This document shows, in pieces, positions 1 to 19,145 of a stretch of DNA of 20,000 nucleotides. This stretch comes from an uncultured virus (IMG/VR IMGVR_UViG_3300030118_003168) (Duplodnaviria > Heunggongvirae > Uroviricota > Caudoviricetes). Below the pieces are notes generated by a model. That model was given only the letters and a program-made list of their open reading frames with translations, did no database searches and was not told where the DNA came from. The stretch spans positions 53,753 to 73,752 of IMG/VR virus record IMGVR_UViG_3300030118_003168. One strand, given 5' to 3'. Position 1 is the first letter of the stretch, and each line of letters starts with the position of its first letter. The position numbers and the translations under genes were made by a program.

Positions 1-3000
1 AAATTTGAACCGAGTTTAGGTAATGAAATAAATCATGGAGTAAAATTCAAATTATTTAAAGGGCCAGCAGTTAATAGTGATTTCATTTCAATCGGTTTAG
101 GAATAAAGAAGGATTTACAAAATTCACTACAAGTAGCCCGACCTTATTTTTGGTTTAATAGAGATGTGAATGAATTAGAAAGCAATACTAAACATTTTAT
201 TAGAGTTAAAGAAATAACAGTCGGAACATCTTTGAATCTATCAACAAGCAGTTCTGATACAACATTCTTAGTTTCTCAAAATTATGCTAATGAAATCAAA
301 GACTATGGTAAATTTACTTTAAAAACAAAATTAGTAGATAATTTAAGAAATTTAGATATTGAAGGCTTTACTCCAATAACATTTACTGGAGATATGCATG
401 CTGTAAATCATCCTGATGAAATAAGAAATATTACTGGCATTAGTTCTGGAACTATCAATGATTTATTATATAGAGGAATAGTCAGAAACAATGTTCCTGA
501 TGGAACTTATGTTACAGAAATTTTAAGTTCTAATTCAATTCGTATTTCTCAAAATGTTACTGCGGCAGTTTCTACAACCTCCTTTACTGTAAGTCATTCT
601 AATGAAAGCCATGCATTAGCATCAAATGATTTAACAGATTATGAAACTTCTTTCTTTAATGCAAGAAGAGACGCTGATGATTTGATTTTACCTTCTGCTT
701 CTAATTATACATCAAGAGGTCCGACAAGATATTTACACTATGATTTTTCAAAAGACAAAGCAAATTATAGTTATAATGTTATTGACTTAAAAATTAATGA
801 ATCTATTAAAGGAAAAACTTCTTTTTCTGAAACACAGATTGCAGACATGATGAAAATATATCCCAATAAACTAGAATTACACAGTCCTATGAGGGCAAGA
901 CAAAGATTAAGTAGAGATAAGTTGAATAAATTTGTTGATACTGGTTTAAGTGTAGGAGCAAACGGAATGCTTACAGGTAATGATGGTTTGGGCAATCAAA
1001 TAGTTTCTGTTCATATTGTAAATGTTAATAGTTATTTTACAACAGGAGAAGAAATAAAAATAGAAGATAGATTATATATAATTTTATCTATAAATTCAGG
1101 AACAAATACTATTACCCTATTACAAGCAGATACTACTATTGATGGTTCACCTAACACTTATTCTCGACTTGAAACAGAATCATCTTATACAGATATTGGA
1201 ACACCTACAATTAATGTGGGAGATTCTGTTTTTAGAAGAGCATATAGTCCTTTTAATAAAACTCTTATTAATAGTTTTGATTTAATTAGCAATAGGCATG
1301 AAGACTTATATTTGATTACTACTTCCCAAAATGCTACATATAATTATTTTAAATGTAGTGCGATAGATGCAAGTAATAATCTACTTACATTTACTGTTAA
1401 TTTAGATAAATATTTAGAAGAAGGATTACATTTAAATAATGACTACTATTTGTATTATGAAAAATTAAATGGAACAATAGAAGTATTAGACTATTATAGA
1501 ACAGATGGACAAAGCATAATGAGAGTAGAGGGTAGAGATATTATGAGTAAGATATTGTCTCCCGTTGTAAATAATGATACTTTATTTAGTGAAGACATAA
1601 TTTATTCTTCTTTTGGAACAATTAATCACTTAGAACAAATAGGTTTTGTTGAAGCAAGTTTCAATAGTCAAGTTATTAATATAAAAGATACTTCAAATGT
1701 TTCTGCTTCAATCACCTTAATTGCAGGAGACAAATTATATGTTCGTAGTAAATCAAACTTCTTTAAGCCATTAGGCACAGTTTTAACAGGCAATACAGGA
1801 AATCAATTTAATTTAGAAAGAGAAAGTAATGTTGAATGTGGCGGAGACACTTTTACAAATGGCGGTGTATTTGAATTATATAAAGCAGTAAAAAATGGTA
1901 GTCAGCCCGTTAAGAATTATATATTTAATAAAGCATTATCAAGTAATATACTGGTTGATTCAGTTACCTCTTTATCGGGAAGTTCAAACAAAGGATTATA
2001 TTTTACTTCAGGAGTTTCTTTAAATAATTTAGGTAATGATGATACTCCTTTAGTTAATACTTCTTCATCAACTGATTCAAGAGCAATAGGTTATCATATA
2101 AGTAAAGTTAGCGGTGATATTGACGGTGCAGACTATCAATGTGTTTTAGGAGATGGGGCATCAACTGAATCACACGAAAATATATTAACAATAAATACTT
2201 TGATGGATTTTTCTGTTATATCTGTAAAAGAAAACGATGGCGGGAAAATAATAGAAATTGCTCCTTATATTCCAGCAACTCTAGGAAGACTAGAATCTAA
2301 CTTAGCAAACAACTATGATGCTACAAAAACTTCAATTGGATTTACTTTAGGAGATGCTTTGATAACAGATTTACAAAATTTTATTAATGTTTCTAGTTCT
2401 GATAGTTCATATGTTGCACTTTCAGAATTATTTATCAGAAGAAATGATTCTGTATTCATTAATGATAGATTTGTTGGTTTTGCCTTAGAACAGCATTTAT
2501 CAGAAAATCATTGTTTTATTGTATTAGATAGACAGGTATTTTATGAAACAGGTCAAACTGTTACAATTATTCATAATAGATTTGGTCTTAGTAAAGGAAC
2601 ATTAGGTGATGGCCCAAGTTCTGATAATAAAAATACTCATGAATTAGAATTGATAAATGTAGGACACTTACACGGAGGTAAAATTATTTCTAATGTGTTT
2701 GATTATGAATCAGTTAATGGATTAAGAACCTTTGATTTTGGTTTAAAATATAATGATGGTAGCGAAATAACTTCTTTTGAAAAGTTTGGTAATCCCAGTT
2801 ATGCGATATATAGTCTTGAAAAAGGAGATAATACTAATTATGCTGCCAGTTATAAAGTTAATTTTCATAGAGATACTTATGCTAAAGTTAAAAGTAGATT
2901 GGTAGATTCATCTAATATTTATAACCATTTACCAATTGAAGGCAGGGGATTTTACACCCCTACTTATTCTAATTTTGATGATAAACAAATAGGAGTATCA

Positions 3001-6000
3001 AGCACCCTTCAAACATACGGTTATCCTTCTACTTTCCCATTTATTATTGCTAGTGGAAATGTCTTTTCAACAGCCGCAAACGCACAATTAGTCGCAGGTA
3101 AATTCAATACAAATACTTCTCAAAATATACAGATTAGGAAAAAATCGGTTGATAGAATGTTTTTATTTGTTAATTCAGATGAGAACCCTTACCATGAAAA
3201 TAGATTAGACAGTTTGTGTAATCCTTTAAGAACCAGAAATATTTCTGATTATGGAATAGTTGGTTTATTGCCTCTCAAGAATACAAATACTCAAGATGAC
3301 AATAATCAAGATATAAACACCCAAAGACACACTAATGTAGATGAAGAATATTCTTTTTCTAATATTGTTTCTTCTGATAAAAGCATAAATTCTTTAATGA
3401 ATGTAGGTATTATGAGATTAACAGAAGTCGTAGTTGATTGGTCTTTTAATCAAATAGACCCCGAAGATATTCAAGATGAAATGATTACTGATGCGGCAGT
3501 AAAAGAAATTTTTACACCAATAACATTAGAAGAAGATGGTGTTGCGATTTATGCTCAAGCAGGAAGTTATAATGTAGGTGGCAACCCAAGCAGCATACAA
3601 TTTTATGATGCTCCTACTGGCGGAAATATTGTCAATTTCGCTTCAACCCTTGTAGAAGCGGGAGATGCTATAATTGCTGATGGAACAGGATTTTTAATTG
3701 GTTTTTGTTTAAACAACAACCCCAATTCATTAATGTCAGATGCTTTGTTTGCTAATTCAAGTAAAAGTGCATATTACATAGGAGAAGTTAAAAAAATTAA
3801 AAAGGCTAATATTGCAGGAAGCGATTTAAAAGGAAGACAAAAAGATACTTTCATGGGCTTTGATGATACATTAAGTATGTTAAGAACAGGATATTTCAAT
3901 AGTCCTGCCCATACTTCTACACAAAAGCAATTAGTTCTTGATAATAACTCATTGTTGCCTATTCATGCTCATAGCGGAGGTAGCACACCTGCTGAATCAT
4001 TAAGTTGGTTTGCTTTACAATTTAATGATAGTAACGGAAATAAAGTCGGTTTCTTTTTTTGGTTTAATGTAGAAAATTCTGACGGTAATCAAATAGATAC
4101 TATTCCTGCTGAATACGCTAACAATTTTTCGCCTCATTCCGATGGCATAACATATACTTCTGTTGAAATACAATTATCAAACGGATATAGTTCAACCGAC
4201 TTTCATGCGGCTTTAGCAACGGCTTTTGATTCTGTTAATTTAAGAACAAATCATGTTTTTGGCGGAAATCAAGCAAATGATTCTGATGCCGCTACTTATG
4301 GTGGAACAACGGTTACTCAATTAAGAACAAAAAGAGCCGCACCAAGTAATTTTTATCAAACCACTTCCACACTTAATCATCACCCCGATTCTACCGTTAC
4401 TACGGTAAATGTAGATATTACCGCAGATAATACAGGATGGGGTGGCAATCCAAGTGCATATTACAATAAATGGAGTGAGATTCTAGGAGGGCAAATAAAT
4501 AATTATGTTTCAATACCAAGAAAAGGAGGAACTTATTTACCAGTTTCTATTACAACTCAATATACTTCTACTCCTACATTTTATTCAGATATATTAACTA
4601 ATATTGCAGGCTCTCCTTTATCTACTTCTTTTGCTGATATTTCTACAACAGATGTTAATGAGTTAAAATATACTGATTTTATACCAGTAGCACTAAGAGG
4701 ATTTGTAATAGAAGACTCAAAAGGTAAAAAGAAAATAAATGCTGGCGAATCATTTCCTAAAATTAAATCACTATTTAGAAAAAATATTAGCAGTTCTCAT
4801 ACTATATTTGGTTTAACTTCAGAATACTCTACTTGGTTTAATAAATATAAATATTATATGGATGCAGGAGTAACAAAAGAAGAAAATGCAGATTTACCAA
4901 ATGAAGGGAATGGTTTAAAAATAGGATTTAAACCCAGATTAGATGCTTCTTTAGCGACTCTAATTTCAGGAACTCAAAGAAGTAATTCAGGAAATAGAAT
5001 ATATAATTATTCTTTTAATACTAATAATACTAAATTATCTTGGTTAAGAGATTTAGACTTAACTGGTTGTTATTTAGTTAGAGTAAGCGGAACTAATATT
5101 GATAATAACTATTTTGTAGAAGGCTTTGGTTTCGCCTATGTTATTTCACATGAAATAGACCCAAGCGATTCTAATAAAGTAATCTTAACTACTTCAACAA
5201 ATTTAGGCCCGAATACATATAGAATACTACAACCTAATCATACTTGTTTTTATGACTTTACTCCGACTCAAATAAATATAGGCCAACTTTCAAGTTCTTA
5301 TACAAAAAAGCCCAAGATAGATGAATGCTATGAAGATTCTTTGAAAAGCCATGCACTTGATGATGTAAGCATGGATAATGATAGTATTAACGACCAAGAA
5401 GCAATAGGTTCAGTATATGTTTTAATTGACTTAACAGGTGATGTTTCGTCTGGTGATAAAATAATAAATACTAGCATGAGAAGAGAATTTTTCGATAATT
5501 TACCCACTACAATTTGTTTAAGTGACGGAGAAGAAACTTTCAAAACAGGAATGCAATCTAACAGTTTTAGTCTTACATTTGATAGTCTGAAAGAATTAAA
5601 AGGAATAGTTAGCCTTAGTGAAATAATTACTTTAAATGTAGGGAAAAATTTTAACAAAGATAGCAAACGATGTTTGATAGGAAATACTGTAAATATTGTT
5701 CAAGAATCTGAAGAACTGGCTAAAAGTTTATTAGAAAAAGAAAACATAAGTTTCACTTCTATAAATGAACCTAGTTATCCTTTATTTACTGCTCCTAACT
5801 TTCAAGGAAATGATTTGTTATCCGCTACTAGATTTTTATTAGGTAAAAAAGATAGAGATATTGAAGTTATTGATGGTAATTTTGTGATTGATGATGAAGA
5901 AGCGACTAATAAATATGCAAATGTATTATTATCAGAAAACAGTAAATATCAAATATATGAATTTGAAAAACAAAAAACGACCTTTTCTTTCTATAATGAA

Positions 6001-6606
6001 GTCATTGTTTATGGTAGTTCGCATAAATCAATTAAAAAAGATTTACGAAGCGTTAAAAAGATAGGAAGAAAAACATTAGAAGTGTTTGATAATAAATTAA
6101 TTACTCAAGAAGATGTGGATAAAGAAGCAAGAGAACTATTGAAACTGCACTCTCAATTAAATGAGTCGTATAAAGTCACGGTATCAACAACGGGATTAGA
6201 ACAAATAAAAAGCGGAGACATAATACAATTTGAACTTAAAAGAGAAAATGTAGATAGAGATGAATATATTATATTATCCGTAGAACATAGACTCTCTAAT
6301 CTTATGGAATTAGAATTAGGAAAATATGCTAAATCATTGGATGATAGATTAGTAGAAATTTTACAGGAAACTAAAGATACTAAATCTCACTTAAGAAGTA
6401 AACAATTCGCTGAAAAAACAGAAACCATTGAAACCTTAGATACTATTAAAATTAAGGAAATAAGAACATTAATAAGAAAAAGAAGCACTACTGGAAATCC
6501 TCTCACGCTTGGCTTTGGAACAAATCTAAATACAAGTAGCGTTGAACTAGGATTTGAGGGTGGGCAAACTATCACGATTACAAATTTAAGGGAGGAAAAC
6601 ATATGA
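1..6606 (+). CDS. Very large virion tail protein with baseplate/tail hub-like segments; 5' end lies outside the window (>2200 aa)
   Basis: Frame 1 is open from base 1 (KFEPSLGNEINHGVKFKLFKGP...), so GTG at 166 is probably not the true start. Rich in N/S/T/G. Segment 'LNGTIEV...MRVEGRDIMSKIL' and C-terminal 'NEVIVYG...SVKKIGRKTLEVFDNKL...AREL...IKSGDII...YIILSVEH...ELELG' resemble phage tail hub proteins. Followed by tail fibre-like genes. Confidence 0.7.
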   Translation, partial: KFEPSLGNEINHGVKFKLFKGPAVNSDFISIGLGIKKDLQNSLQVARPYFWFNRDVNELESNTKHFIRVKEITVGTSLNLSTSSSDTTFLVSQNYANEIKDYGKFTLKTKLVDNLRNLDIEGFTPITFTGDMHAVNHPDEIRNITGISSGTINDLLYRGIVRNNVPDGTYVTEILSSNSIRISQNVTAAVSTTSFTVSHSNESHALASNDLTDYETSFFNARRDADDLILPSASNYTSRGPTRYLHYDFSKDKANYSYNVIDLKINESIKGKTSFSETQIADMMKIYPNKLELHSPMRARQRLSRDKLNKFVDTGLSVGANGMLTGNDGLGNQIVSVHIVNVNSYFTTGEEIKIEDRLYIILSINSGTNTITLLQADTTIDGSPNTYSRLETESSYTDIGTPTINVGDSVFRRAYSPFNKTLINSFDLISNRHEDLYLITTSQNATYNYFKCSAIDASNNLLTFTVNLDKYLEEGLHLNNDYYLYYEKLNGTIEVLDYYRTDGQSIMRVEGRDIMSKILSPVVNNDTLFSEDIIYSSFGTINHLEQIGFVEASFNSQVINIKDTSNVSASITLIAGDKLYVRSKSNFFKPLGTVLTGNTGNQFNLERESNVECGGDTFTNGGVFELYKAVKNGSQPVKNYIFNKALSSNILVDSVTSLSGSSNKGLYFTSGVSLNNLGNDDTPLVNTSSSTDSRAIGYHISKVSGDIDGADYQCVLGDGASTESHENILTINTLMDFSVISVKENDGGKIIEIAPYIPATLGRLESNLANNYDATKTSIGFTLGDALITDLQNFINVSSSDSSYVALSELFIRRNDSVFINDRFVGFALEQHLSENHCFIVLDRQVFYETGQTVTIIHNRFGLSKGTLGDGPSSDNKNTHELELINVGHLHGGKIISNVFDYESVNGLRTFDFGLKYNDGSEITSFEKFGNPSYAIYSLEKGDNTNYAASYKVNFHRDTYAKVKSRLVDSSNIYNHLPIEGRGFYTPTYSNFDDKQIGVSSTLQTYGYPSTFPFIIASGNVFSTAANAQLVAGKFNTNTSQNIQIRKKSVDRMFLFVNSDENPYHENRLDSLCNPLRTRNISDYGIVGLLPLKNTNTQDDNNQDINTQRHTNVDEEYSFSNIVSSDKSINSLMNVGIMRLTEVVVDWSFNQIDPEDIQDEMITDAAVKEIFTPITLEEDGVAIYAQAGSYNVGGNPSSIQFYDAPTGGNIVNFASTLVEAGDAIIADGTGFLIGFCLNNNPNSLMSDALFANSSKSAYYIGEVKKIKKANIAGSDLKGRQKDTFMGFDDTLSMLRTGYFNSPAHTSTQKQLVLDNNSLLPIHAHSGGSTPAESLSWFALQFNDSNGNKVGFFFWFNVENSDGNQIDTIPAEYANNFSPHSDGITYTSVEIQLSNGYSSTDFHAALATAFDSVNLRTNHVFGGNQANDSDAATYGGTTVTQLRTKRAAPSNFYQTTSTLNHHPDSTVTTVNVDITADNTGWGGNPSAYYNKWSEILGGQINNYVSIPRKGGTYLPVSITTQYTSTPTFYSDILTNIAGSPLSTSFADISTTDVNELKYTDFIPVALRGFVIEDSKGKKKINAGESFPKIKSLFRKNISSSHTIFGLTSEYSTWFNKYKYYMDAGVTKEENADLPNEGNGLKIGFKPRLDASLATLISGTQRSNSGNRIYNYSFNTNNTKLSWLRDLDLTGCYLVRVSGTNIDNNYFVEGFGFAYVISHEIDPSDSNKVILTTSTNLGPNTYRILQPNHTCFYDFTPTQINIGQLSSSYTKKPKIDECYEDSLKSHALDDVSMDNDSINDQEAIGSVYVLIDLTGDVSSGDKIINTSMRREFFDNLPTTICLSDGEETFKTGMQSNSFSLTFDSLKELKGIVSLSEIITLNVGKNFNKDSKRCLIGNTVNIVQESEELAKSLLEKENISFTSINEPSYPLFTAPNFQGNDLLSATRFLLGKKDRDIEVIDGNFVIDDEEATNKYANVLLSENSKYQIYEFEKQKTTFSFYNEVIVYGSSHKSIKKDLRSVKKIGRKTLEVFDNKLITQEDVDKEARELLKLHSQLNESYKVTVSTTGLEQIKSGDIIQFELKRENVDRDEYIILSVEHRLSNLMELELGKYAKSLDDRLVEILQETKDTKSHLRSKQFAEKTETIETLDTIKIKEIRTLIRKRSTTGNPLTLGFGTNLNTSSVELGFEGGQTITITNLREENI

Positions 6607-10057: not shown

Positions 10058-10207
10058 TCACTTAATGTTCTTATCTTCGCCCATTAAACGCTTCATGTAT
10101 TCTTCAACGCTTTCATCAGTAACCGAAGTTCCACCGAAAGCAGCGAAAAACAGAAGCATTAGAACGACGATGAAAACAAACAAGCCGAACCATTCCCAAC
10201 CAGTCAT
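10058..10207 (-). CDS. 49-aa single-pass membrane protein
   Basis: Hand translation: MTGWEWFGLFVFIVVLMLLFFAAFGGTSVTDESVEEYMKRLMGEDKNIK*. TAATG overlap with the exonuclease stop and a perfect GGAGGTGA at 10215-10222. Not in the ORF track. Confidence 0.8.
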   Translation of the reverse strand: MTGWEWFGLFVFIVVLMLLFFAAFGGTSVTDESVEEYMKRLMGEDKNIK

Positions 10208-10800
10208 TACCATTTCACCTCCAAATCTAAATATTCTCCTTTTTCAACCGAAAAGGCTTTTACAATTCCATTATTTTGTCCATACTGCCAAAGGTCATAG
10301 ACTAATTGTGTATCTTTCATACAATATTCAACTACTTCATCATACTGTCCCATTTTCCACAATTTAGGTGCATCTGCACTATCCATTAACTTAGCATCAT
10401 TCATAGTGCATTTAACAAGATTTTTTAATTGAAACCTTTCACCATGTTCTTTAAGCAACAACTTAGAAGTATCTATATATTTTTCTTCACTAAGATATTT
10501 ATTAATACAGAATATATCCATAGAATCCCTAAGAATAGGTAAATCAAATGCAACAATGTTATGTCCTAATAATAGACCTCCTTTTTGCAAATGCTCATCT
10601 AAGTCATATTTGAGTTCTCTAAGAGATTTAACTATGTGTCCTGATTTAGCAAAAGAATTTACTGGTTCATCAACATAAACTGTTCCAGTATTACCATCCC
10701 AAGTAGCAACAGTAGATACTTGAAACATATGAGTATTACCGAAACCACCAATATCATAAGACATATTTTTGGTTTCTAAGTCAATTGCTAAAATTGACAT
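10207..10800 (-). CDS. DEDDy 3'-5' exonuclease (RNase H-like, YprB/RNase_H_2-type)
   Basis: ExoI 'ILAIDLET', ExoII 'GHNIVAFDLPIL', ExoIII 'EYCMKDTQLV'; AGGTGA at 10807-10812. Confidence 0.85.
   Translation of the reverse strand: MSILAIDLETKNMSYDIGGFGNTHMFQVSTVATWDGNTGTVYVDEPVNSFAKSGHIVKSLRELKYDLDEHLQKGGLLLGHNIVAFDLPILRDSMDIFCINKYLSEEKYIDTSKLLLKEHGERFQLKNLVKCTMNDAKLMDSADAPKLWKMGQYDEVVEYCMKDTQLVYDLWQYGQNNGIVKAFSVEKGEYLDLEVKW
10215..10222 (-). promoter_or_regulatory. Archaeal-type Shine-Dalgarno GGAGGTGA (representative of many sites)
   Basis: (A/G)GGTGA also lies just upstream of starts at 10807-10812, 11040-11045, 12570-12575, 19152-19157 (- strand) and 9076-9081 (+ strand); GGAGGT at 13258-13263 (- strand). 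Confidence 0.8.
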
Positions 10801-11033: not shown

Positions 11034-12565
11034 TCGTCATCACCTTTTTTCAGTCTAATATATTTAGAACGACTAATATACATTTCTTCAAATCTATGTT
11101 CTACATTCCCAAAATGTCTGTAAATTTGTGCTTGAGATTTCTTGGCTTTCTCTTTAATTGCTTTGAAATACAATGTTTTATTGACATAACCTTCTTCATC
11201 TTTCTCCATGTTGTTATAAACATTAATAAAGACTGACTCTAGCGAATTTTCAGCAATACTATGTCGCTTAACCCGTAGGCTTCGCTCTAACCAATCAACC
11301 AATGTCATATAACATTGTCGGACAATCGTAGCCGCTTGACGGACATTATGCCCCGAAACATTGAATCTTTGGCTTTTATCTTTGATTGATGGAGCAGAAG
11401 CAACGCTACAAAGAACAGACATTTTAATGAGAATTTTAAGCAAACGGGTAGTAAAATTTGCTGCAATTTCAGCAACTTCGCCTCTTGTGTTCCAAAGATA
11501 GTTATTCATATTTTGATACTCTAACTTCAAAACATCATTGAAATCAGGAGAATAAGTCATAACATTGAGAACATTACCTCCGACTTCATTATATCTTTCT
11601 TCAACTAATTCGTAAATTTTGAAAATAGCATTAGCAAATCTTTCAACTGGTTGATTAACTTCTTCTAATGTTCCTGCTTTTTCAATTTGCTCTAATCTCA
11701 TTTTATGCTGAATAAATTTAGGAACTTCCCAAACATATAAAAGCATTCTTTGAAGAACACCTTTTTCAGCCATTACTTCGTTTAGATTACTTGGAGGATA
11801 AGTCATAGCAATTACTGAACGCTCACAAAAACATTCCATAATTTTATTATCATAAGAAGTCAAAGCCTTAGATATTATCCATGATTCACCTGCCAATGTA
11901 TTCATTAAAGTATTAAGATAAACAATTGCTTTATCTTGATGTTGGCTTTGCTTAAAAATACCAGAATATTCAAATTCATCCCAATGGGCTAATCCGCTTC
12001 CTTCAAGCAATCCAGCGTTTCTTTTTGGTTTCATTTCTCCTGTCCACTTTTCTTCAAAGGTTTCTTCATTAACTTCCATTACTTTTTCTTCTCCCCAATT
12101 ACCAATCAATACTGAATCTGTATAATCTGTTATACCGAAAGTATCAAACTTTCTTTCCATAATATCATCAACATGAGGATTATCTGAATTTGTTTTTAGT
12201 GAAGGATGATTTCCTTTACCATTAATCAATTCAAATGTTTTGTTAGCAACTGGCCCAACAAAATTCCATAATGTTGATTTTCCTGTTCCGCTTGTTTGAA
12301 CCCAACAAAAATGCACTCTTGAATCTTCAATGTTTCTTCCGTTTGGTATTTGTATAAAATCTTTACAGACCTGTCCTAAAATATTAAAGAAAGAAATTGC
12401 TGCTGGTATTTCATTATAATGAGATACTTCAACTGCTGAGGTTTGAAACTCTCTAACAATTGCAGGAAGGGCTTCACTAAATGCAATAGCATTTTCTTCT
12501 AAAGCCTCCAAATACTCATCTTCAACTTCTTCTCCATATAGTTCTTCGTTATATTCATTACTCAT
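11030..12565 (-). CDS. MCM-like/DUF3987-like AAA+ ATPase, probable replicative helicase
   Basis: Walker A 'QTSGTGKST', Walker B 'GLAHWDEFE', arginine-finger-like 'GVLQRML', sensor-2-like 'TTRLLKILIKMS', MCM-like closing helix 'VSGHNVRQAATIV', possible C-terminal winged helix. Confidence 0.7.
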   Translation of the reverse strand: MSNEYNEELYGEEVEDEYLEALEENAIAFSEALPAIVREFQTSAVEVSHYNEIPAAISFFNILGQVCKDFIQIPNGRNIEDSRVHFCWVQTSGTGKSTLWNFVGPVANKTFELINGKGNHPSLKTNSDNPHVDDIMERKFDTFGITDYTDSVLIGNWGEEKVMEVNEETFEEKWTGEMKPKRNAGLLEGSGLAHWDEFEYSGIFKQSQHQDKAIVYLNTLMNTLAGESWIISKALTSYDNKIMECFCERSVIAMTYPPSNLNEVMAEKGVLQRMLLYVWEVPKFIQHKMRLEQIEKAGTLEEVNQPVERFANAIFKIYELVEERYNEVGGNVLNVMTYSPDFNDVLKLEYQNMNNYLWNTRGEVAEIAANFTTRLLKILIKMSVLCSVASAPSIKDKSQRFNVSGHNVRQAATIVRQCYMTLVDWLERSLRVKRHSIAENSLESVFINVYNNMEKDEEGYVNKTLYFKAIKEKAKKSQAQIYRHFGNVEHRFEEMYISRSKYIRLKKGDDE

Positions 12566-13251
12566 ATTTTCACCTTCTCTTCTGAATTTAATGTAGAGAT
12601 TATTCTTTTGGCTAAGGTTTCTCCAATACCTTCAATCGCTTGTAGTTCAAATGCTGAACACTCGCCAATTTCCATAATAGAGCCATATTGTTTTATTAAT
12701 TGTTTTGCTTTTTTAATTGATACGCCTTTAATACTGCTTAACAAATCTATTCTTAAATCATCTGTTGTAATTCTTTTAAATATCTGTGGTGCTATTGTTT
12801 CTCTTGTTAATGGTTTCATTTTACTTACTGCTGTTATTATTAGTGCCGCTTCTTCTTCCGTCTGAACCCAAAAAGGTTTAACATCGGTATCTAAAACGAT
12901 TCTCCCTAATGCTCCTAAAAATTTATTACTTAGCATAATACTTCTAGTTCCTATTGGCATTTTACTGGGAGAGTGTTCAATTACATTCATAATTGCTTCT
13001 TGCATATCGCCATAAATAATGACGACATTAGTTTGATAATGTCTATCCATATTATCTATTTGTGTCCATAATCTTTTAGACATTACTGAACCTAAAAAAT
13101 CGGTTGCTGATTTTGCTTCAAAACAAACATCATCAAAAATATAATCGCCTATTTCAAGCCACTTTACTTCATGTTCTATCTTAAGGGCTTTTGCTTTTTG
13201 AACAACAAGTTTAGAAAGTTTTGAATTTTCTCTTGAATCAATTACTAGCAT
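12562..13251 (-). CDS. ERCC4/XPF-family structure-specific endonuclease with tandem HhH domain
   Basis: 'VIDSRE', 'IGDYI', 'FEAKSATDFLGS' (ERKxxxD variant); HhH motifs 'IKGVSIKKAKQL' and 'IEGIGETLAKRI'. Confidence 0.9.
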   Translation of the reverse strand: MLVIDSRENSKLSKLVVQKAKALKIEHEVKWLEIGDYIFDDVCFEAKSATDFLGSVMSKRLWTQIDNMDRHYQTNVVIIYGDMQEAIMNVIEHSPSKMPIGTRSIMLSNKFLGALGRIVLDTDVKPFWVQTEEEAALIITAVSKMKPLTRETIAPQIFKRITTDDLRIDLLSSIKGVSIKKAKQLIKQYGSIMEIGECSAFELQAIEGIGETLAKRIISTLNSEEKVKI

Positions 13252-14568: not shown

Positions 14569-15474
14569 TCACAACCATGTGTCTTCATTTGCAGCATCAC
14601 AAATACCAAAGTAAGAACAATGAGAACAAGTCTTATAATAAAACTTAGTTTCAAAATGTTTCTGTTCATAAGAATGTATTAACTTAGCAATATTGTTCAT
14701 AACCGAAGTTTTTGTTCTTTTCTTAACAGGTTCAACAGTAATATGATTAGCAACGGGATAATACCAACCCCAATGACTTACTTCTAAGTCAGAAGTTAAT
14801 CCATGTTTGGTTAAGATTTCTTCAGGAGCATTTTCAAGCATTAATTGATAAAATGCCATTTCTTGTCTCATTGAAGTTTTCTTCCAGTCTTTCCATCCAC
14901 CTGTTTTATATTCAAAAGGAATAAGTTTGCCGTCTTCAATGAATACTCGGTCAATAATACCTTGAAGTCTAACAACATAATCTCTTTGTAATGGAAACTT
15001 GGGATTCGTATTTCTAGGGATAGTTAATTCACAATCAAACATTTTTTCGTTAATTATAGGTAAAAACTCATGTGTTCTCCCTTCACTTTTTGCTTCAATA
15101 AATCGCTGTGCTTCAAAAGCAGCAACAGTTAAAGAAACATCAAAGTATTCATCAACGGGCATTAAACTTGTTGCATACTCCATAATTTCTGAATTATTCA
15201 TGGAATCGGCTTTCTTAATATCAAATTCATCAAAAAAGGCTTCTCTATGATTATGTAATATAGTTCCTTTACGCATGGCTTCCGTTTGGTCTTGAGGTAA
15301 TCTCTCAATATAACTAAACTCATACTTTTTAGGACACCAATTAAAAGAACCTAATGAAGACTTGCTTATCTTTAAGATAGGCTTAGAAGGGTCTTCAAAT
15401 GCTTCTGCATCCCATTGATATGTAAATTCTCTCATTGACTTTAATCTTGCTTCGTATTGTTCATCTTTACTCAT
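14569..15474 (-). CDS. Stand-alone Cas4-like PD-(D/E)XK (RecB-family) nuclease with probable Fe-S cluster
   Basis: 'SKSSLGSFNWCPKKY', 'GTILH', 'GIIDRV', 'EYKTG', 'QEMAFY' and C-terminal 'CSHCSYFGIC' give the 1+3 cysteine arrangement of Cas4/AddB. Confidence 0.85.
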   Translation of the reverse strand: MSKDEQYEARLKSMREFTYQWDAEAFEDPSKPILKISKSSLGSFNWCPKKYEFSYIERLPQDQTEAMRKGTILHNHREAFFDEFDIKKADSMNNSEIMEYATSLMPVDEYFDVSLTVAAFEAQRFIEAKSEGRTHEFLPIINEKMFDCELTIPRNTNPKFPLQRDYVVRLQGIIDRVFIEDGKLIPFEYKTGGWKDWKKTSMRQEMAFYQLMLENAPEEILTKHGLTSDLEVSHWGWYYPVANHITVEPVKKRTKTSVMNNIAKLIHSYEQKHFETKFYYKTCSHCSYFGICDAANEDTWL

Positions 15475-15477
15475 ATT

Positions 15478-16371
15478 TTACCACCACTCATCAAGGCTCG
15501 TTTGTGTATATCCTGTGCGTATGGACGATATATCCCAACCCATCGCCTTGTAAATAGGTTCGGCTTTCTTTACTACTTGTTCAGCATAGTGCTTCCAATC
15601 GGGAATATAACCTTCAAAATCCTTTTTAGTTATGCCCGATATGTATTCAACATCTTTTCTTTCTTGCGTTAAAGGATGAATAAATGAATTACAAAAGCCC
15701 ATTACTTTGATAAATAAATAAGAGTCATCAAAATTAGTGTCATTTTTTTGCCAAGCGTATAAAACTCCAGCAATACCTGAACCAATTGACGGTTTTTTTC
15801 CTTCAAGTGTAGTAAATTTGCTTGTTTCTGTTGCACATTTTTTACAGACAGAATGTTTTAGTTCTAAACATTCCTTCAAATGATATTTTGCTTTACATTC
15901 TGGGCATTTTACTGTGAATCTGGAAGGTCTTAAACGACTTCTCTTAATGATTGAATCAATATTAATTTTACCATTAATAACCTTTTGATATGTTTCAAAA
16001 AGATATTTATTGATTTCTGCCTGTGTTTTTTCTCCAACCCACATTTTAAGAACATTAGTTTGAACTTCCTTTGCTAATTTAGTTTCACTCACTCTTTTAG
16101 CAGTAAATCCTGTCATTGTGAACTTTGGCTCATCAAGCCATTCTCCATCTTCCCAAGATACTAAACCAGCATTTCTGTTTTTTGTTGTTCCTACACCTAA
16201 TGCTGAAAAATACTTTTCAAATTCTAATACTACTGGGTGTTCTTTTAATCCCATAACATTAGGAAAGTGTTCTCTTACTGATGCTTCAATTTCTTTAATC
16301 GCTGTTTGAGCAGTTTCTACGGAATCAATTTGCACATAGATAGAATCGGTATGTCCATAAACTACTTTCAT
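15478..16371 (-). CDS. polB: Family B DNA polymerase, C-terminal subunit (motif C, palm remainder, thumb, PIP box)
   Basis: Begins MKVVYGHTDSIYV (motif C variant), then 'LEFEKYF', 'KNRNAG', 'MTGFTAKR', 'PDWKHYAEQVVKKAEPI'; ends QTSLDEWW (PIP box). Confidence 0.92.
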   Translation of the reverse strand: MKVVYGHTDSIYVQIDSVETAQTAIKEIEASVREHFPNVMGLKEHPVVLEFEKYFSALGVGTTKNRNAGLVSWEDGEWLDEPKFTMTGFTAKRVSETKLAKEVQTNVLKMWVGEKTQAEINKYLFETYQKVINGKINIDSIIKRSRLRPSRFTVKCPECKAKYHLKECLELKHSVCKKCATETSKFTTLEGKKPSIGSGIAGVLYAWQKNDTNFDDSYLFIKVMGFCNSFIHPLTQERKDVEYISGITKKDFEGYIPDWKHYAEQVVKKAEPIYKAMGWDISSIRTGYTQTSLDEWW

Positions 16372-16375
16372 AATA

Positions 16376-16582
16376 TCACTTTAACCAACTAAACATTATT
16401 CCAACTGGCTGATTAGCCATTTTTGCTACTTCTTCTTGTAATTCACGAATACATCTTTTAAGATTACCATTCACATCATTTTGCTCAATTTGATAATCCA
16501 AGTCTTTTTCTAATCCGTTAATTCTTTGCTTGAGGGCTTTTATTTCCCTTTTTAGTTCTTTAATTTCTTCCTTTTCTTTCAT
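16376..16582 (-). CDS. Small coiled-coil protein
   Basis: 68 aa with heptad pattern (IKELKREIKALKQRINGLEKDL); ATGA-coupled to the upstream ORF. Confidence 0.7.
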   Translation of the reverse strand: MKEKEEIKELKREIKALKQRINGLEKDLDYQIEQNDVNGNLKRCIRELQEEVAKMANQPVGIMFSWLK

Positions 16583-16710
16583 ATTACCACCGTAATTATT
16601 GTTATAATGGTTGCTATGTTTACGATATTTACCATCATTAATATCTTATTTGACCTTGCTATCATAGCCAGCAATTCTTCTAATAACTCATTTGTTCTGT
16701 CCATCATCAT
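16579..16710 (-). CDS. 43-aa protein with C-terminal hydrophobic/transmembrane segment
   Basis: Hand translation: MMMDRTNELLEELLAMIARSNKILMMVNIVNIATIITIITVVI*; stop overlaps the next start (ATGA). Exact start Met uncertain. Not in the ORF track. Confidence 0.65.
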   Translation of the reverse strand: MMMDRTNELLEELLAMIARSNKILMMVNIVNIATIITIITVVI

Positions 16711-16939
16711 TGTAATCCACCGAATCATTTAGAATTTTCACATTACCCGCAACCTGAACATTATTATTTCCAATTGCAATTTGTGAAGTAGAATTGACTC
16801 CTTGTTCAACGCCTAAGATAATAGCATTACGCTTTAGATTATTCATCATCTGAAATATCTCTTTTACTTCTTGTAATGTTATTTCCCATGTTTCTTCGGT
16901 ATCATACGATACTTTAACTGTTACTATTTTTGTTCTCAT
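16688..16939 (-). CDS. Hypothetical protein (83 aa)
   Basis: Starts 1 nt after the upstream stop, with GAGGA upstream; no recognisable motif. Confidence 0.65.
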   Translation of the reverse strand: MRTKIVTVKVSYDTEETWEITLQEVKEIFQMMNNLKRNAIILGVEQGVNSTSQIAIGNNNVQVAGNVKILNDSVDYNDDGQNK

Positions 16940-16940
16940 T

Positions 16941-17156
16941 TTAAATCCTCACATATGTTCTTCTTCCTCTATTCATATCTTTAGATATGATATTATCTTT
17001 ACGATTCAAATACCATCCTATTGCACTATTATCTGCTACAAAAGTAGTTCCTCTTTCAGAAACTAACTGTTCTCTAACAGTAGTGGCAAGAAATTCATGC
17101 CCTACTGGATATTCAGAAACAATTGAATCAATCCATCTTTTAACATGACTATTCAT
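16941..17156 (-). CDS. Hypothetical protein (71 aa), possibly winged-helix
   Basis: ATGA-coupled, AAGGAG upstream; helix-helix-helix then beta-hairpin pattern ending GRRTYVRI. Fold is a guess. Confidence 0.6.
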   Translation of the reverse strand: MNSHVKRWIDSIVSEYPVGHEFLATTVREQLVSERGTTFVADNSAIGWYLNRKDNIISKDMNRGRRTYVRI

Positions 17157-17284
17157 CCAAATCTCTCCTTATGTCCACATTTAGGGCACTCATATACTGC
17201 TTTTTCTTTTGCAGAACTATATCCATACCCTTTAGGTTTATAATATTTACAAACTAATTCTTCTTTACATACTATACATTTCAT
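17153..17284 (-). CDS. 43-aa zinc-ribbon protein (CxxC-x26-CxxC)
   Basis: Hand translation: MKCIVCKEELVCKYYKPKGYGYSSAKEKAVYECPKCGHKERFG*; ATGA overlaps at both ends. Not in the ORF track. Confidence 0.8.
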   Translation of the reverse strand: MKCIVCKEELVCKYYKPKGYGYSSAKEKAVYECPKCGHKERFG

Positions 17285-17496
17285 ATTTCCATCTCCTTAT
17301 TTATTTTATTTTTCAAAGCAAATTTAATATTTTTAATAAAACTTTGTTGGGCTTTTTTAGACATTTTAGTTATGTGAAACCCTTCACAAAATTCACAATA
17401 ATAAAAGTTTAATTTGATGTTTTCTAACTCCTTTGCTTTCTTTTGATATTTTCTTGCTAAAGAAGCATTAGGGTAAATTACTTTACCACATCTCAT
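17281..17496 (-). CDS. Small basic Zn-binding protein (C...CxxC...H)
   Basis: 'MRCGKVIY...A...YYCEFCEGFHITK' resembles a common small phage protein pattern (C.K..Y...Y.C..C.gwHlT); ATGA overlap with the polB-N stop. Confidence 0.7.
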   Translation of the reverse strand: MRCGKVIYPNASLARKYQKKAKELENIKLNFYYCEFCEGFHITKMSKKAQQSFIKNIKFALKNKINKEMEI

Positions 17497-17510
17497 ACTT
17501 CCATCTCCTT
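17281..17510 (-). repeat. 18-bp direct repeat AAGGAGATGGAA(G/A)TATGA at 17493-17510 and 17281-17298
   Basis: + strand tcatacttccatctcctt versus tcatatttccatctcctt, one mismatch; each copy encodes KEME(V/I)* and supplies the SD plus ATGA start of the next ORF. Confidence 0.9.
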
Positions 17511-19145
17511 TGCCTTAAATGCCGCTAATCTAATTGCTTCTCTTGCACTTGCAGTAATTGATGCGGCTAAATTAACATTAGCCCAACCAAATCCTTGAAA
17601 TGCAACGATACCGTAAAAAGAAGCCATTAAACGCTTAACTGCCATTTGATTGTTATACCACTTCGCATAATCTCCCGTTCCTCTTGCTTCTCTCATAAGT
17701 CGCTTATATTCGTTTCGCAACTCCTTAAGTTCCAATACTGCTCTCGGTAATAATCCAAGTTCATCAGTTTTGAAGTAAATCATTTGTTTTCTAGTAGTTT
17801 CACTAAAATCTCTTGGTGTTAAGATATTAACTGCAAATTCTGTTGGTTCTTCACTAATTGTTTCCCAACTGATATTACGAGCAATCATCATACTAGGATA
17901 TAGACCTGCAAAATCAAAAGCAGCAACATTAAGATGTAATCCATTTGTTTCTTCACTTAATGGGTCATAAATCATAGCACCTTCATATTCTTCTCTTTTA
18001 TCCACTTTACTTCCTGTTGGTGCTTTCCACCAAGCATTACGCATAAAGTAAATAGAACCCATATGAGAAGCATAGAAACAAGCATCAAATGGTGCTTTTA
18101 GCAATCTTTGTAATGAAAGAATTGCTTCACTACAAAAGTTTGTTTCATCAATTTCAACAATCAATTCAACATCTTTTAGAGCATACTCAAGATAAGTTTC
18201 CGTATCTTCTAACCAAGCACGACGATAAAATTCATTTGTATCTGGGAACTTTTCCGATACTAACTTCTTTTTACCAAGAACCATTTCACCGATATAATCT
18301 AATGACATTGATGGTAATGTTCCTCTTTGAGAATCATTCCATTGTCTTTCAAATGCTAAATCTAATGAAAGCGTAATTCGCCCACCAATAGGTTGTTCAA
18401 TCGGACTAAATCCATTCTCCGCATAAGCAAAAGAAAATCCGTCCTTTGTCTTTTTAATACCCTTAACATACCCAATAGGCGACATAATGCAAGGATTCAA
18501 TCCTACTGCACACGCTCTTTCTAATAACTTAGGAATATCAGCAAAATTACCAAACCAAGCAATTAACATATCTGGGTCTTTTATAATCATTGTAGTCATA
18601 AAAGATTCAATCATATCTTTTTCATTATCAAAAACAAAATGATGAAACGATTGATTTATTTTCTGTTCAATGAATTGTTCTTCAGGAAACCATACCCATT
18701 GGTAGTATGCTTCATCGTAATTGTCATAAACAACAATTGTAGTCAATTGGTCGTGATATTCTCCGCCTTGTTGCCATTCCATATCCCAATACCATTTACG
18801 CATATTATATTCGGGCATTTCATGTAATTCATCTACACAATATCTAAAGTGTAAAGGAACATCTGCTTCATAGGTTTTACCAAATATCTTCTTTGCTTCT
18901 CTAATATCATTTGCTGAATCTACTAAAACTTTCTTTAGTGGTTCTTTATCAAGATTAACCCAATCACCACGAATATAATCAAAATCTCTAGTAATATATT
19001 TAGAAGCATTATACGCTGGCGGTTCATGCGCTTCTTCATCCACATAGAAATAGGGTTGAAAATTAACCAATTCAAACTTTTTTTCACCATTTTCCCTCCA
19101 TGATTTATAAATAGTTCTACCATCATTCATCTTGTTAATTATCAT
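17493..19145 (-). CDS. polB: Family B DNA polymerase, N-terminal subunit (N-domain, 3'-5' exonuclease, motifs A and B)
   Basis: 'YEADVPLHFRYCVD', ExoI 'WDMEW', ExoII 'WFGNFAD', ExoIII 'YALKDV', 'YEGAMI', motif A 'DFAGLYPSMM', motif B 'QMAVKRLMASFYG', 'AASITASARE'; stops just before motif C. Confidence 0.95.
   Translation of the reverse strand: MIINKMNDGRTIYKSWRENGEKKFELVNFQPYFYVDEEAHEPPAYNASKYITRDFDYIRGDWVNLDKEPLKKVLVDSANDIREAKKIFGKTYEADVPLHFRYCVDELHEMPEYNMRKWYWDMEWQQGGEYHDQLTTIVVYDNYDEAYYQWVWFPEEQFIEQKINQSFHHFVFDNEKDMIESFMTTMIIKDPDMLIAWFGNFADIPKLLERACAVGLNPCIMSPIGYVKGIKKTKDGFSFAYAENGFSPIEQPIGGRITLSLDLAFERQWNDSQRGTLPSMSLDYIGEMVLGKKKLVSEKFPDTNEFYRRAWLEDTETYLEYALKDVELIVEIDETNFCSEAILSLQRLLKAPFDACFYASHMGSIYFMRNAWWKAPTGSKVDKREEYEGAMIYDPLSEETNGLHLNVAAFDFAGLYPSMMIARNISWETISEEPTEFAVNILTPRDFSETTRKQMIYFKTDELGLLPRAVLELKELRNEYKRLMREARGTGDYAKWYNNQMAVKRLMASFYGIVAFQGFGWANVNLAASITASAREAIRLAAFKAKEMEV

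Follow-up and report, generated by a model that had tools for sequence, protein, structure and literature searches.

The window analysed here is a stretch of 20,000 nucleotides from an uncultured virus of the class Caudoviricetes (IMG/VR record IMGVR_UViG_3300030118_003168, positions 53,753 to 73,752), and its minus strand encodes a family B DNA polymerase (PolB) that deviates from the family consensus in four active-site motifs. Two of the altered elements, the lysine of the KxY motif and the motif C signature YxDTDS, rank with the best-conserved features of the whole family. The question raised by this locus is whether such an enzyme can still replicate a viral genome and, if so, what holds the substitutions together. 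From comparative analysis of sequences, it is considered probable that this enzyme, the split PolB of a group B magrovirus, would be an active replicase in which a His–Asn pair has replaced the usual Asp–Lys pair in a compensated swap.

The four deviant motifs had been listed in an original prediction made from the DNA letters, and minus-strand translation confirms each of them, in position as well as in residues. That prediction had overlooked that the motifs fall in two separate open reading frames (ORFs): the polymerase gene is split, and its two halves are referred to below as the N part and the C part.

17493..19145, minus strand: PolB N part, 550 amino acids, with the N-terminal domain, the 3'-5' exonuclease, the start of the palm with motif A, and the fingers with motif B
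17892..17915, minus strand: motif A, DFAGLYPS, N part residues 411-418; D411 and Y416 are kept and the usual Ser is replaced by Gly
17610..17636, minus strand: motif B, KRLMASFYG, N part residues 504-512; the Asn that contacts the incoming deoxynucleoside triphosphate (dNTP) is replaced by Ala
15478..16371, minus strand: PolB C part, 297 amino acids, with the palm strand-hairpin bearing motif C, the KxY strand and the thumb
16342..16359, minus strand: motif C, YGHTDS, C part residues 5-10; the first Asp is replaced by His (H7) and the catalytic D9 is kept
16165..16182, minus strand: KxY (KKRY) motif, KNRNAG, C part residues 64-69; the Lys is replaced by N65 and the Tyr by N67

As had also been predicted, the Asp of motif A, the second Asp of motif C, the Lys of motif B and the steric-gate Tyr are retained, to which the Tyr and Gly of motif B can be added. 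Membership in family B is supported by matches to PF00136 and PF03104, all above the curated cut-offs (DNA_pol_B 2.9e-20 over profile positions 37-193 and DNA_pol_B_exo1 2.6e-06 for the N part; DNA_pol_B 2.3e-08 over profile positions 222-361 for the C part). The nearest structural relatives by sequence are RNA/DNA-primed PolBs. The N part matches the Deep Vent, Pfu and KOD polymerases in the Protein Data Bank, and the HMMER alignment identifies Deep Vent DFRSLYPS and KILANSYYG as the counterparts of motifs A and B. Similarly, the C part aligns with residues 692-832 of yeast Pol delta (3iay), in which YGDTDS and KKRYAG are, by HMMER alignment, the counterparts of YGHTDS and KNRNAG. Set against the canonical motifs, the window enzyme lacks the first of the two Asp residues of YxDTDS, and the region of KKRY reads N-R-N.

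Which of these substitutions belong together was addressed through natural variation. A HMMER search with the C part in 1.84 billion representative sequences returned 291 matches at E<=0.001, of which the best 150 were used; one further candidate row came from a word-indexed search for longer relatives. Rows in which motif C could be recognised and was followed by at least 90 residues were kept, leaving 98 which, with the window, form an alignment of 99 palm regions (53 were dropped). Every row with Asp in motif C has Lys in the KxY motif (71/71), and the His rows have Asn (27/28) or, in a single case, Met (1/28), mixed Asp/His–Lys/Asn states being absent from the 99 rows. Among 150 columns, the Lys column alone separates perfectly with the His/Asp column. 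The proposal that the motif C Asp and the KxY Lys change together is borne out by these counts. The broader proposal, that all four motifs form one coordinated set, is not: the motif B Asn is missing from some Asp-type PolBs and retained by some His-type PolBs, and the KxY Tyr is replaced by Asn in just 17 of the 28 His rows. Strict coupling is limited to the His–Asn pair, and the other substitutions are clade traits. The next-best separating column is the Asp of an RRD stretch (C part residue 95, 16087-16089), which is present in 64/71 Asp-type rows and replaced in the magro-type clade. It was rejected as a third strictly coupled position, and its change is regarded as a clade trait because three outlier His rows retain the Asp.

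The His–Asn pair is a trait of a whole clade of magro-type viral PolBs, recurring in other viral PolBs including that of phage RM378. The exchanges of the KxY Tyr for Asn, of the motif B Asn for Ala or Ser and of the motif A Ser for Gly are narrower clade traits layered on top of it. Strict co-replacement of this kind is the pattern that would be expected of a contact pair.

In canonical PolBs, the first Asp of motif C and the Lys of the KxY motif both lie beside the primer terminus. [quoted passage not shown] The minor-groove role that the original prediction had given to RB69 K706 is documented, as is the lethality of Lys loss (PMC4333401, accessible part). For the pairing of RB69 D621 with K706, which that prediction had stated, literature searches found no readable paper that reports it. 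According to the same accessible text, the K706A (RB69), K498T (phi29) and K967A (Pol epsilon) substitutions almost abolish synthesis; K967A, which makes Pol epsilon a processive exonuclease, is lethal. Strong selection would accordingly be expected against loss of the Lys on its own.

In the proposed mechanism, motif A, the fingers and the proofreading exonuclease would come from the N protein and motif C, the thumb and the rest of the palm from the C protein, the two proteins assembling into the replicase without being covalently joined. The charged Asp–Lys pair would be swapped for a neutral, hydrogen-bonding His–Asn pair, with the primer end still held in the polymerase site. Because this neutral pair would still hold the primer end, the enzyme would stay an active, proofreading replicase.

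A full-text literature search for 'YGHTDS' returned no paper, and in the accessible part of the study describing magroviruses (PMC5434244) there is no mention of active-site substitutions, of a His–Asn pairing or of a conserved gap gene. The pairing appears to be undescribed in the searchable text of papers; Figure 4 of PMC7544198 contains 'Magro' logos in which the residues may be visible. A selected, natural His–Asn replacement, found in a cultured thermophilic phage and in abundant ocean viruses whose sole replicase carries it, would offer a ready-made experiment on how a primer terminus is held and checked, and could guide polymerase engineering. It also carries a warning for annotation: the absence of the first Asp from motif C is not, taken alone, a sign that a PolB is inactive.

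That four conserved polymerase motifs deviate, and that KxY Lys substitutions cripple synthesis and leave Pol epsilon a processive exonuclease (PMC4333401, accessible part), could also mean that polymerase function has been lost, the two proteins persisting for their exonuclease or for a structural role in a replisome which uses a host polymerase. Conservation was assessed in 80 related viral loci, with 62-98% identity in the C part. YGHTDS is found in 80/80 relatives, and H7, T8, D9 and S10 are invariant in 57/57 rows. N-R-N occupies the KxY motif in 80/81 rows, the remaining one being truncated there. Among 75 rows, Ala (69) or Ser (6) stands at the position of the motif B Asn, and Gly (66), Gln (7) or a gap (2) at that of the motif A Ser. 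The substitutions are more than chance, because they are fixed or nearly fixed in 80 relatives spanning this range of identity. The exonuclease is intact as well, and its motifs are located as follows.

18777..18785, minus strand: Exo I, D121-x-E123, aligned with FDIE of Deep Vent
18537..18539, minus strand: Exo II, catalytic Asp D203, aligned with the second Asp of Deep Vent GDSFD
18171..18185, minus strand: Exo III, Y321-x-x-x-D325, aligned with Deep Vent YSMED

The exonuclease residues D121, E123, D203, Y321 and D325 are invariant in 50/50 rows, as are D411 and Y416 of motif A among the relatives. The ratio of nonsynonymous to synonymous substitution rates (dN/dS) lies between 0.076 and 0.251 in 16 comparisons, covering both halves of the window enzyme against eight relatives. 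The window is the final 20 kb of a 73.7-kb virus record, and that record is collinear with G001, a complete relative of 96 kb whose nucleotide sequence is about 97% identical. The two PolB halves are the only PF00136 matches in 4/4 complete relatives (92-97 kb), and Pfam scans of the record and of the rest of G001 revealed no further polymerase family. Loss of polymerase function is regarded as extremely improbable: both metal-binding Asp residues, the steric-gate Tyr and the Lys, Tyr and Gly of motif B are invariant, the deviant residues are fixed instead of drifting, and the C part, which would be dispensable for an exonuclease, has by itself a dN/dS of 0.10-0.25. The view of the original prediction that the enzyme is remodelled and not decaying is sustained by the same observations, from the 80/80 conservation of YGHTDS and the low dN/dS to the 50/50 exonuclease residues and the sole PF00136 matches in 4/4 genomes.

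How often the His–Asn pair arose was addressed with trees. On a quick LG+G4 tree of 63 full-length rows of at least 600 amino acids, the His state needs four changes, at least three of them on well-supported branches. The His rows comprise a clade of seven magro-type rows (support 100), P0144 apart from it, P0069 nested in an Asp-type clade, and P0050 with P0063 likewise placed in an Asp-type clade. The approximately unbiased (AU) test rejects a single His clade both for the full-length alignment (p-AU 0.0003) and for its N-terminal part (p-AU 0.003). Exchange of C modules, raised as a source of the covariation by disagreement between AU tests, is not favoured: in BLAST ranks, both modules of the outlier His rows, the C modules included, are closest to the same Asp-type families, with His-clade rows ranking 25th to 62nd. 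Because these ranks speak against C-module exchange, three or four origins are favoured. Viral scans for relatives of P0144 and P0069 returned none, and a scan for relatives of P0050 returned just loci of 25% identity.

Several points weigh against a compensated swap with repeated origins. On the C-terminal part (260 columns), a single His clade is not rejected (p-AU 0.46), and on 149 palm columns from which the trait columns were removed (p-AU 0.62) the constrained tree is better by 13.7 log-likelihood units. A paired test gave 3/3 pairs (p 0.25), a size at which significance cannot be reached. The trees are quick LG+G4 trees, the His groups were named after the tree had been inspected, and P0069 and P0144 are single-member clusters on short contigs. 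The number of origins is uncertain, with an honest range of one to four; more than one is likely. His and Asn lie 58 residues apart on the same module, and with few origins they would also travel together by linkage. What the sequences show is the residues with their conservation and covariation, the split, the intact exonuclease and the lack of any second PolB; polymerase activity, physical H7–N65 contact and a near function-preserving swap are what we infer from them. A literature search found no biochemical study of any His–Asn PolB. Finally, the motif B Asn is lost together with the KxY Tyr. In KOD this Asn touches both the beta-phosphate and the 3'-OH of the dNTP (PMC5718519), and kinetics or fidelity may therefore differ markedly from those of canonical enzymes.

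Some of these points could be explained if His and Asn were unrelated lineage markers with a single origin, co-inherited on the C-terminal module and functionally uncoupled. Such an account agrees with a single His clade not being rejected on the C-terminal part, with the placement of the two residues (58 positions apart in one gene) and with the 3/3 paired test (p 0.25). It is at odds with the rejection of a single clade on the full length and the N part, and with the affinity of the outlier His rows to Asp-type families in both modules. Nor does it account for the Lys being present in 71/71 Asp rows and absent from 28/28 His rows, a behaviour shared by no other column of 150, when its loss is near-lethal in three model enzymes (PMC4333401, accessible part). 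We judge this account quite improbable.

The compensated swap gains a possible bench system from the thermophilic phage RM378. Table S2 of PMC7544198 contains 'HTDS' in at least four sequences, in at least three of which it lies in motif C: the RM378 polymerase-domain protein, a 305-residue protein binned as Maricaulis and a 249-residue protein binned as Parvibaculum. All three have Asn at the Lys position (by eye only for the Parvibaculum-binned protein), and the 305-residue protein is a split C part like that of the window. The accessible text of PMC7544198 holds no discussion of these His-type sequences. In Rhodothermus phage RM378, protein Rm378p092 (NC_004735) has YSHTDS as motif C and an N-R-Y that aligns on N65-R66-N67. 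BLASTP aligns it with the window enzyme over motif C only (E 0.008), and the two are too distant for a separate origin to be judged. Like the window enzyme, the RM378 polymerase has the His–Asn pairing and is naturally split, and the pair can be tested at the bench because RM378 is a cultured phage. They differ in the place of the split, which in RM378 lies between the N-terminal/exonuclease region and the palm (PMC3061061) and in the window precedes motif C, and in the motif B Asn and KxY Tyr, which RM378 retains and the window enzyme has lost.

Other searches for His-type enzymes returned little. The word-indexed search for longer relatives gave only one protein. A tblastn search with the C part found no match at E 1e-3 in GenBank phage records, a null which reflects a limit of sensitivity because RM378 is in that collection. 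A scan of 185,579 prokaryote genomes with the His-type alignment produced a single locus, itself split. This match (L091) lies on the 24-kb contig NZMJ01000151.1 of a Maricaulis sp. metagenome-assembled genome (MAG), and its protein is labelled Maricaulis in Table S2 of PMC7544198 as well; the contig is probably viral and was placed in a bacterial MAG during binning.

Comparison with characterised PolBs bears on whether the enzyme is a general replicase or a specialist. The 'Magro' group has been placed with the B5 and T4-like PolBs (Kazlauskas et al., 2020; PMC7544198, accessible part). The window enzyme shares with RB69/T4 gp43 and the archaeal B5 enzymes the order of motifs, the exonuclease and two metal-binding Asp residues; it differs from them in having YGHTDS, KNRN and Ala where they have YGDTDS, KKRY and the motif B Asn. 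It has in common with the B2/G2 (Dpo2-like) PolBs that the first motif C Asp is missing and that a His occurs in motif C, in B2/G2 of an active enzyme (PMC7544198, accessible part). The same source gives B2/G2 degraded exonuclease motifs (Exo I not conserved, Exo III missing), a group-specific D(K/R) motif that may make up for the absent Asp, and a role in repair; in the window enzyme, by contrast, all three Exo motifs are invariant and the enzyme is the sole PolB. In piPolB, motif C and the KxY motif are likewise jointly altered in an active enzyme (PMC5695915, accessible part). That enzyme, however, belongs to the protein-primed branch, has TPR1/TPR2, keeps the Lys and uses other replacement residues: its SxTTDG and KH-X8-KTRG stand against YGHTDS in motif C and KNRN in the KxY region of the window.

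Similar considerations are the source of an alternative in which the enzyme is active but specialised, with lower fidelity, lesion tolerance or another metal preference, the His taking part in catalysis or metal binding and not just standing in for a structural contact. Its precedents are the B2/G2 PolBs, which keep one motif C Asp and a conserved motif C His and perform translesion synthesis (PMC7544198, accessible part), and piPolB, which has Thr at that place and KTRG for KxY and combines lesion bypass with priming (PMC5695915, accessible part). The inclusion of the first motif C Asp in the RB69 'catalytic triad' (PMC3792054) and the additional loss of the motif B Asn, a dNTP contact, point the same way. 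The exonuclease motifs are nonetheless intact and invariant, unlike those of B2/G2, and the KTRG of piPolB retains the Lys, which makes it a different precedent. The enzyme is moreover the sole PolB of a virus that also has clamp-loader, ligase and nuclease genes, pointing to bulk replication. A specialised enzyme therefore seems unlikely, if still deserving of attention. More speculative, and held to be distinctly unlikely, is that His–Asn (His–Asn–Asn in the split clade) constitutes a distinct grip on the primer terminus, of several origins, with altered minor-groove sensing or metal preference and with assembly perhaps involving the gap protein encoded at 16688-16939. If this were true, abundant ocean viruses would have a replicase with an unusual balance of synthesis and proofreading or a tolerance for odd primer ends.

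The original prediction had suggested adaptation to a modified base, and the corresponding alternative is a site remodelled for a non-canonical substrate, for example a modified base of the viral DNA. The simultaneous deviation of several residues of the dNTP pocket and primer terminus (the motif B Asn, the motif A Ser and the Lys and Tyr of KxY) would suit such a site. Pfam scans of the record and the rest of G001 revealed no thymidylate-synthase/hydroxymethylase, PurZ, 7-deazaguanine, TGT/DpdA, dUTPase, glycosyltransferase or methylase family. In targeted six-frame searches, PF00303, PF00709, PF01702 and PF01555 (thymidylate-synthase-like, PurZ-like, TGT/DpdA-like and N6/N4 methylase families) matched in 0/5 genomes, four of them complete. 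The search for modification genes thus gave the suggestion no support. About two thirds of the ORFs of the record have no Pfam match and could hide an unknown pathway, and because so many ORFs are without a family match this null is absence of evidence. Post-replicative methylation would need no changed polymerase, and the His–Asn pair is not tied to the gene content of this genome, because diverse viral PolBs including that of RM378 share it. A modified base is accordingly considered very unlikely as the cause of the substitutions.

The split of the polymerase gene, just before motif C, is itself a conserved feature: all 74 relatives that hold both halves are split (74/74), and their spacers measure 436-2387 bp. 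Motif B is followed by 38 more residues before the N part ends, and the C part starts about three to four residues ahead of motif C. The spacer and its ORFs are as follows.

16372..17492, minus strand: spacer, 1121 bp; five small ORFs lie in it on the polymerase strand, abutting or overlapping one another
17281-17496, minus strand: spacer ORF
17153-17284, minus strand: spacer ORF
16941-17156, minus strand: spacer ORF
16688-16939, minus strand: spacer ORF, a small gene of 83 amino acids with a core of about 45 amino acids and an acidic tail
16376-16582, minus strand: spacer ORF

An intron or an intein was considered as the interruption and rejected. The spacer has no Rfam match at E up to 1 and for that reason no recognisable intron, and the distance from motif B to motif C across the split is about 42 residues, with no extra residues at the junction. 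This spacing we take to be about equal to that of KOD. The N and C proteins would have to assemble as separate chains because neither end has possible intein halves.

A PolB cut in its catalytic domain is already known from group B magroviruses, in which the DNA polymerase is split inside that domain (Philosof et al., 2017; PMC5434244, accessible part). Further systems that build one PolB from two genes are Methanothermobacter PolB and T4-like gp43 (PMC3061061, PMC2993671). The positions differ: the T4-like splits lie in the fingers, and that of Methanothermobacter lies in the palm, about 83 residues after Pfu position 467.

The small gene at 16688-16939 has a tblastn match between the two halves in 79/80 related loci, and five more distantly related split loci lack it. 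Conservation of its core exceeds that of the polymerase, and the protein matches no Pfam family. The AlphaFold2 model of the 83-residue protein has a predicted local distance difference test score (pLDDT) above 90 over residues 1-45, with a single helix (15-34) and extended flanks. As a missing piece of PolB the ORF was rejected, the spacing between motifs B and C being complete without it. A three-chain complex prediction of the N part, the C part and this protein as a partner gave a score of 0.00, uninformative either way.

The remaining gap ORFs differ from relative to relative. Those at 17153-17284 and 17281-17496 (minus strand) are small, Cys-rich and zinc-ribbon-like by pattern, and are found in 7 and 5 of the 80 loci, respectively; one Cys-rich gap ORF overlaps the stop codon of the N part by four bases. 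The relatives have 55 distinct gap ORFs with 90 amino acids or more; a domain scan of 35 of these detected HNH genes (L037 2535-3263, L038 2538-3263 and L062 1688-2395) and GIY-YIG-type genes of the MUG113/T5orf172 kind (L034 379-948 and L060 2421-3041), and no methylase. The gaps of T4-like phage polymerase genes similarly contain mobile (homing endonuclease) elements (PMC2993671). The sequences fit a polymerase gap that would serve as a landing site for free-standing homing endonuclease genes. The N part of a distant split relative (L099 5815-7512) has one in-frame stop inside its tblastn match.

One further element of the C part is a cluster of cysteines in the thumb.

15835..15906, minus strand: CxxC...CxxC cluster (C156, C159, C176 and C179), thumb of the C part

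In 57 rows, C156 and C159 are invariant and C176 and C179 at least 90% conserved, and by its pattern the cluster is probably a zinc-binding insert.

As for the virus, the record encodes a terminase, portal, protease, capsid protein, tail tube and two ATP-dependent ligases. UvrD-like, Cas4-like, XPF-like and DenV-like repair proteins are found in the record and G001 taken together, and G001 adds an RFC-like ATPase, a Cpn60 chaperonin and a class II ribonucleotide reductase. Group B magroviruses resemble it in the PolB cut in the catalytic domain and in a genome of about 95 kb carrying a chaperonin and a ribonucleotide reductase alongside replisome genes and a head-tail module (PMC5434244, accessible part). 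From the split and the gene make-up, compared with the published description, the virus very probably belongs to the group B magroviruses, which are head-tailed and have marine group II archaea as hosts.

Downstream of the polymerase, on the same minus strand, lies a cluster of nuclease genes (14569-15474, 12562-13251 and 10207-10800) which comprises a Cas4-like PD-(D/E)XK protein with C-terminal cysteines, an ERCC4/XPF protein with helix-hairpin-helix motifs and a weak match to an RNase_T-like exonuclease. In the region of G001 beyond the record, a ThiF-family (E1-like) protein is encoded (L090 13178-13735, minus strand). At the other end of the window, positions 1-6606 (plus strand) belong to an ORF of 2332 amino acids that begins 392 bases upstream in the record and follows the tail genes; it has no Pfam match and probably encodes a tail fibre or another large virion protein.

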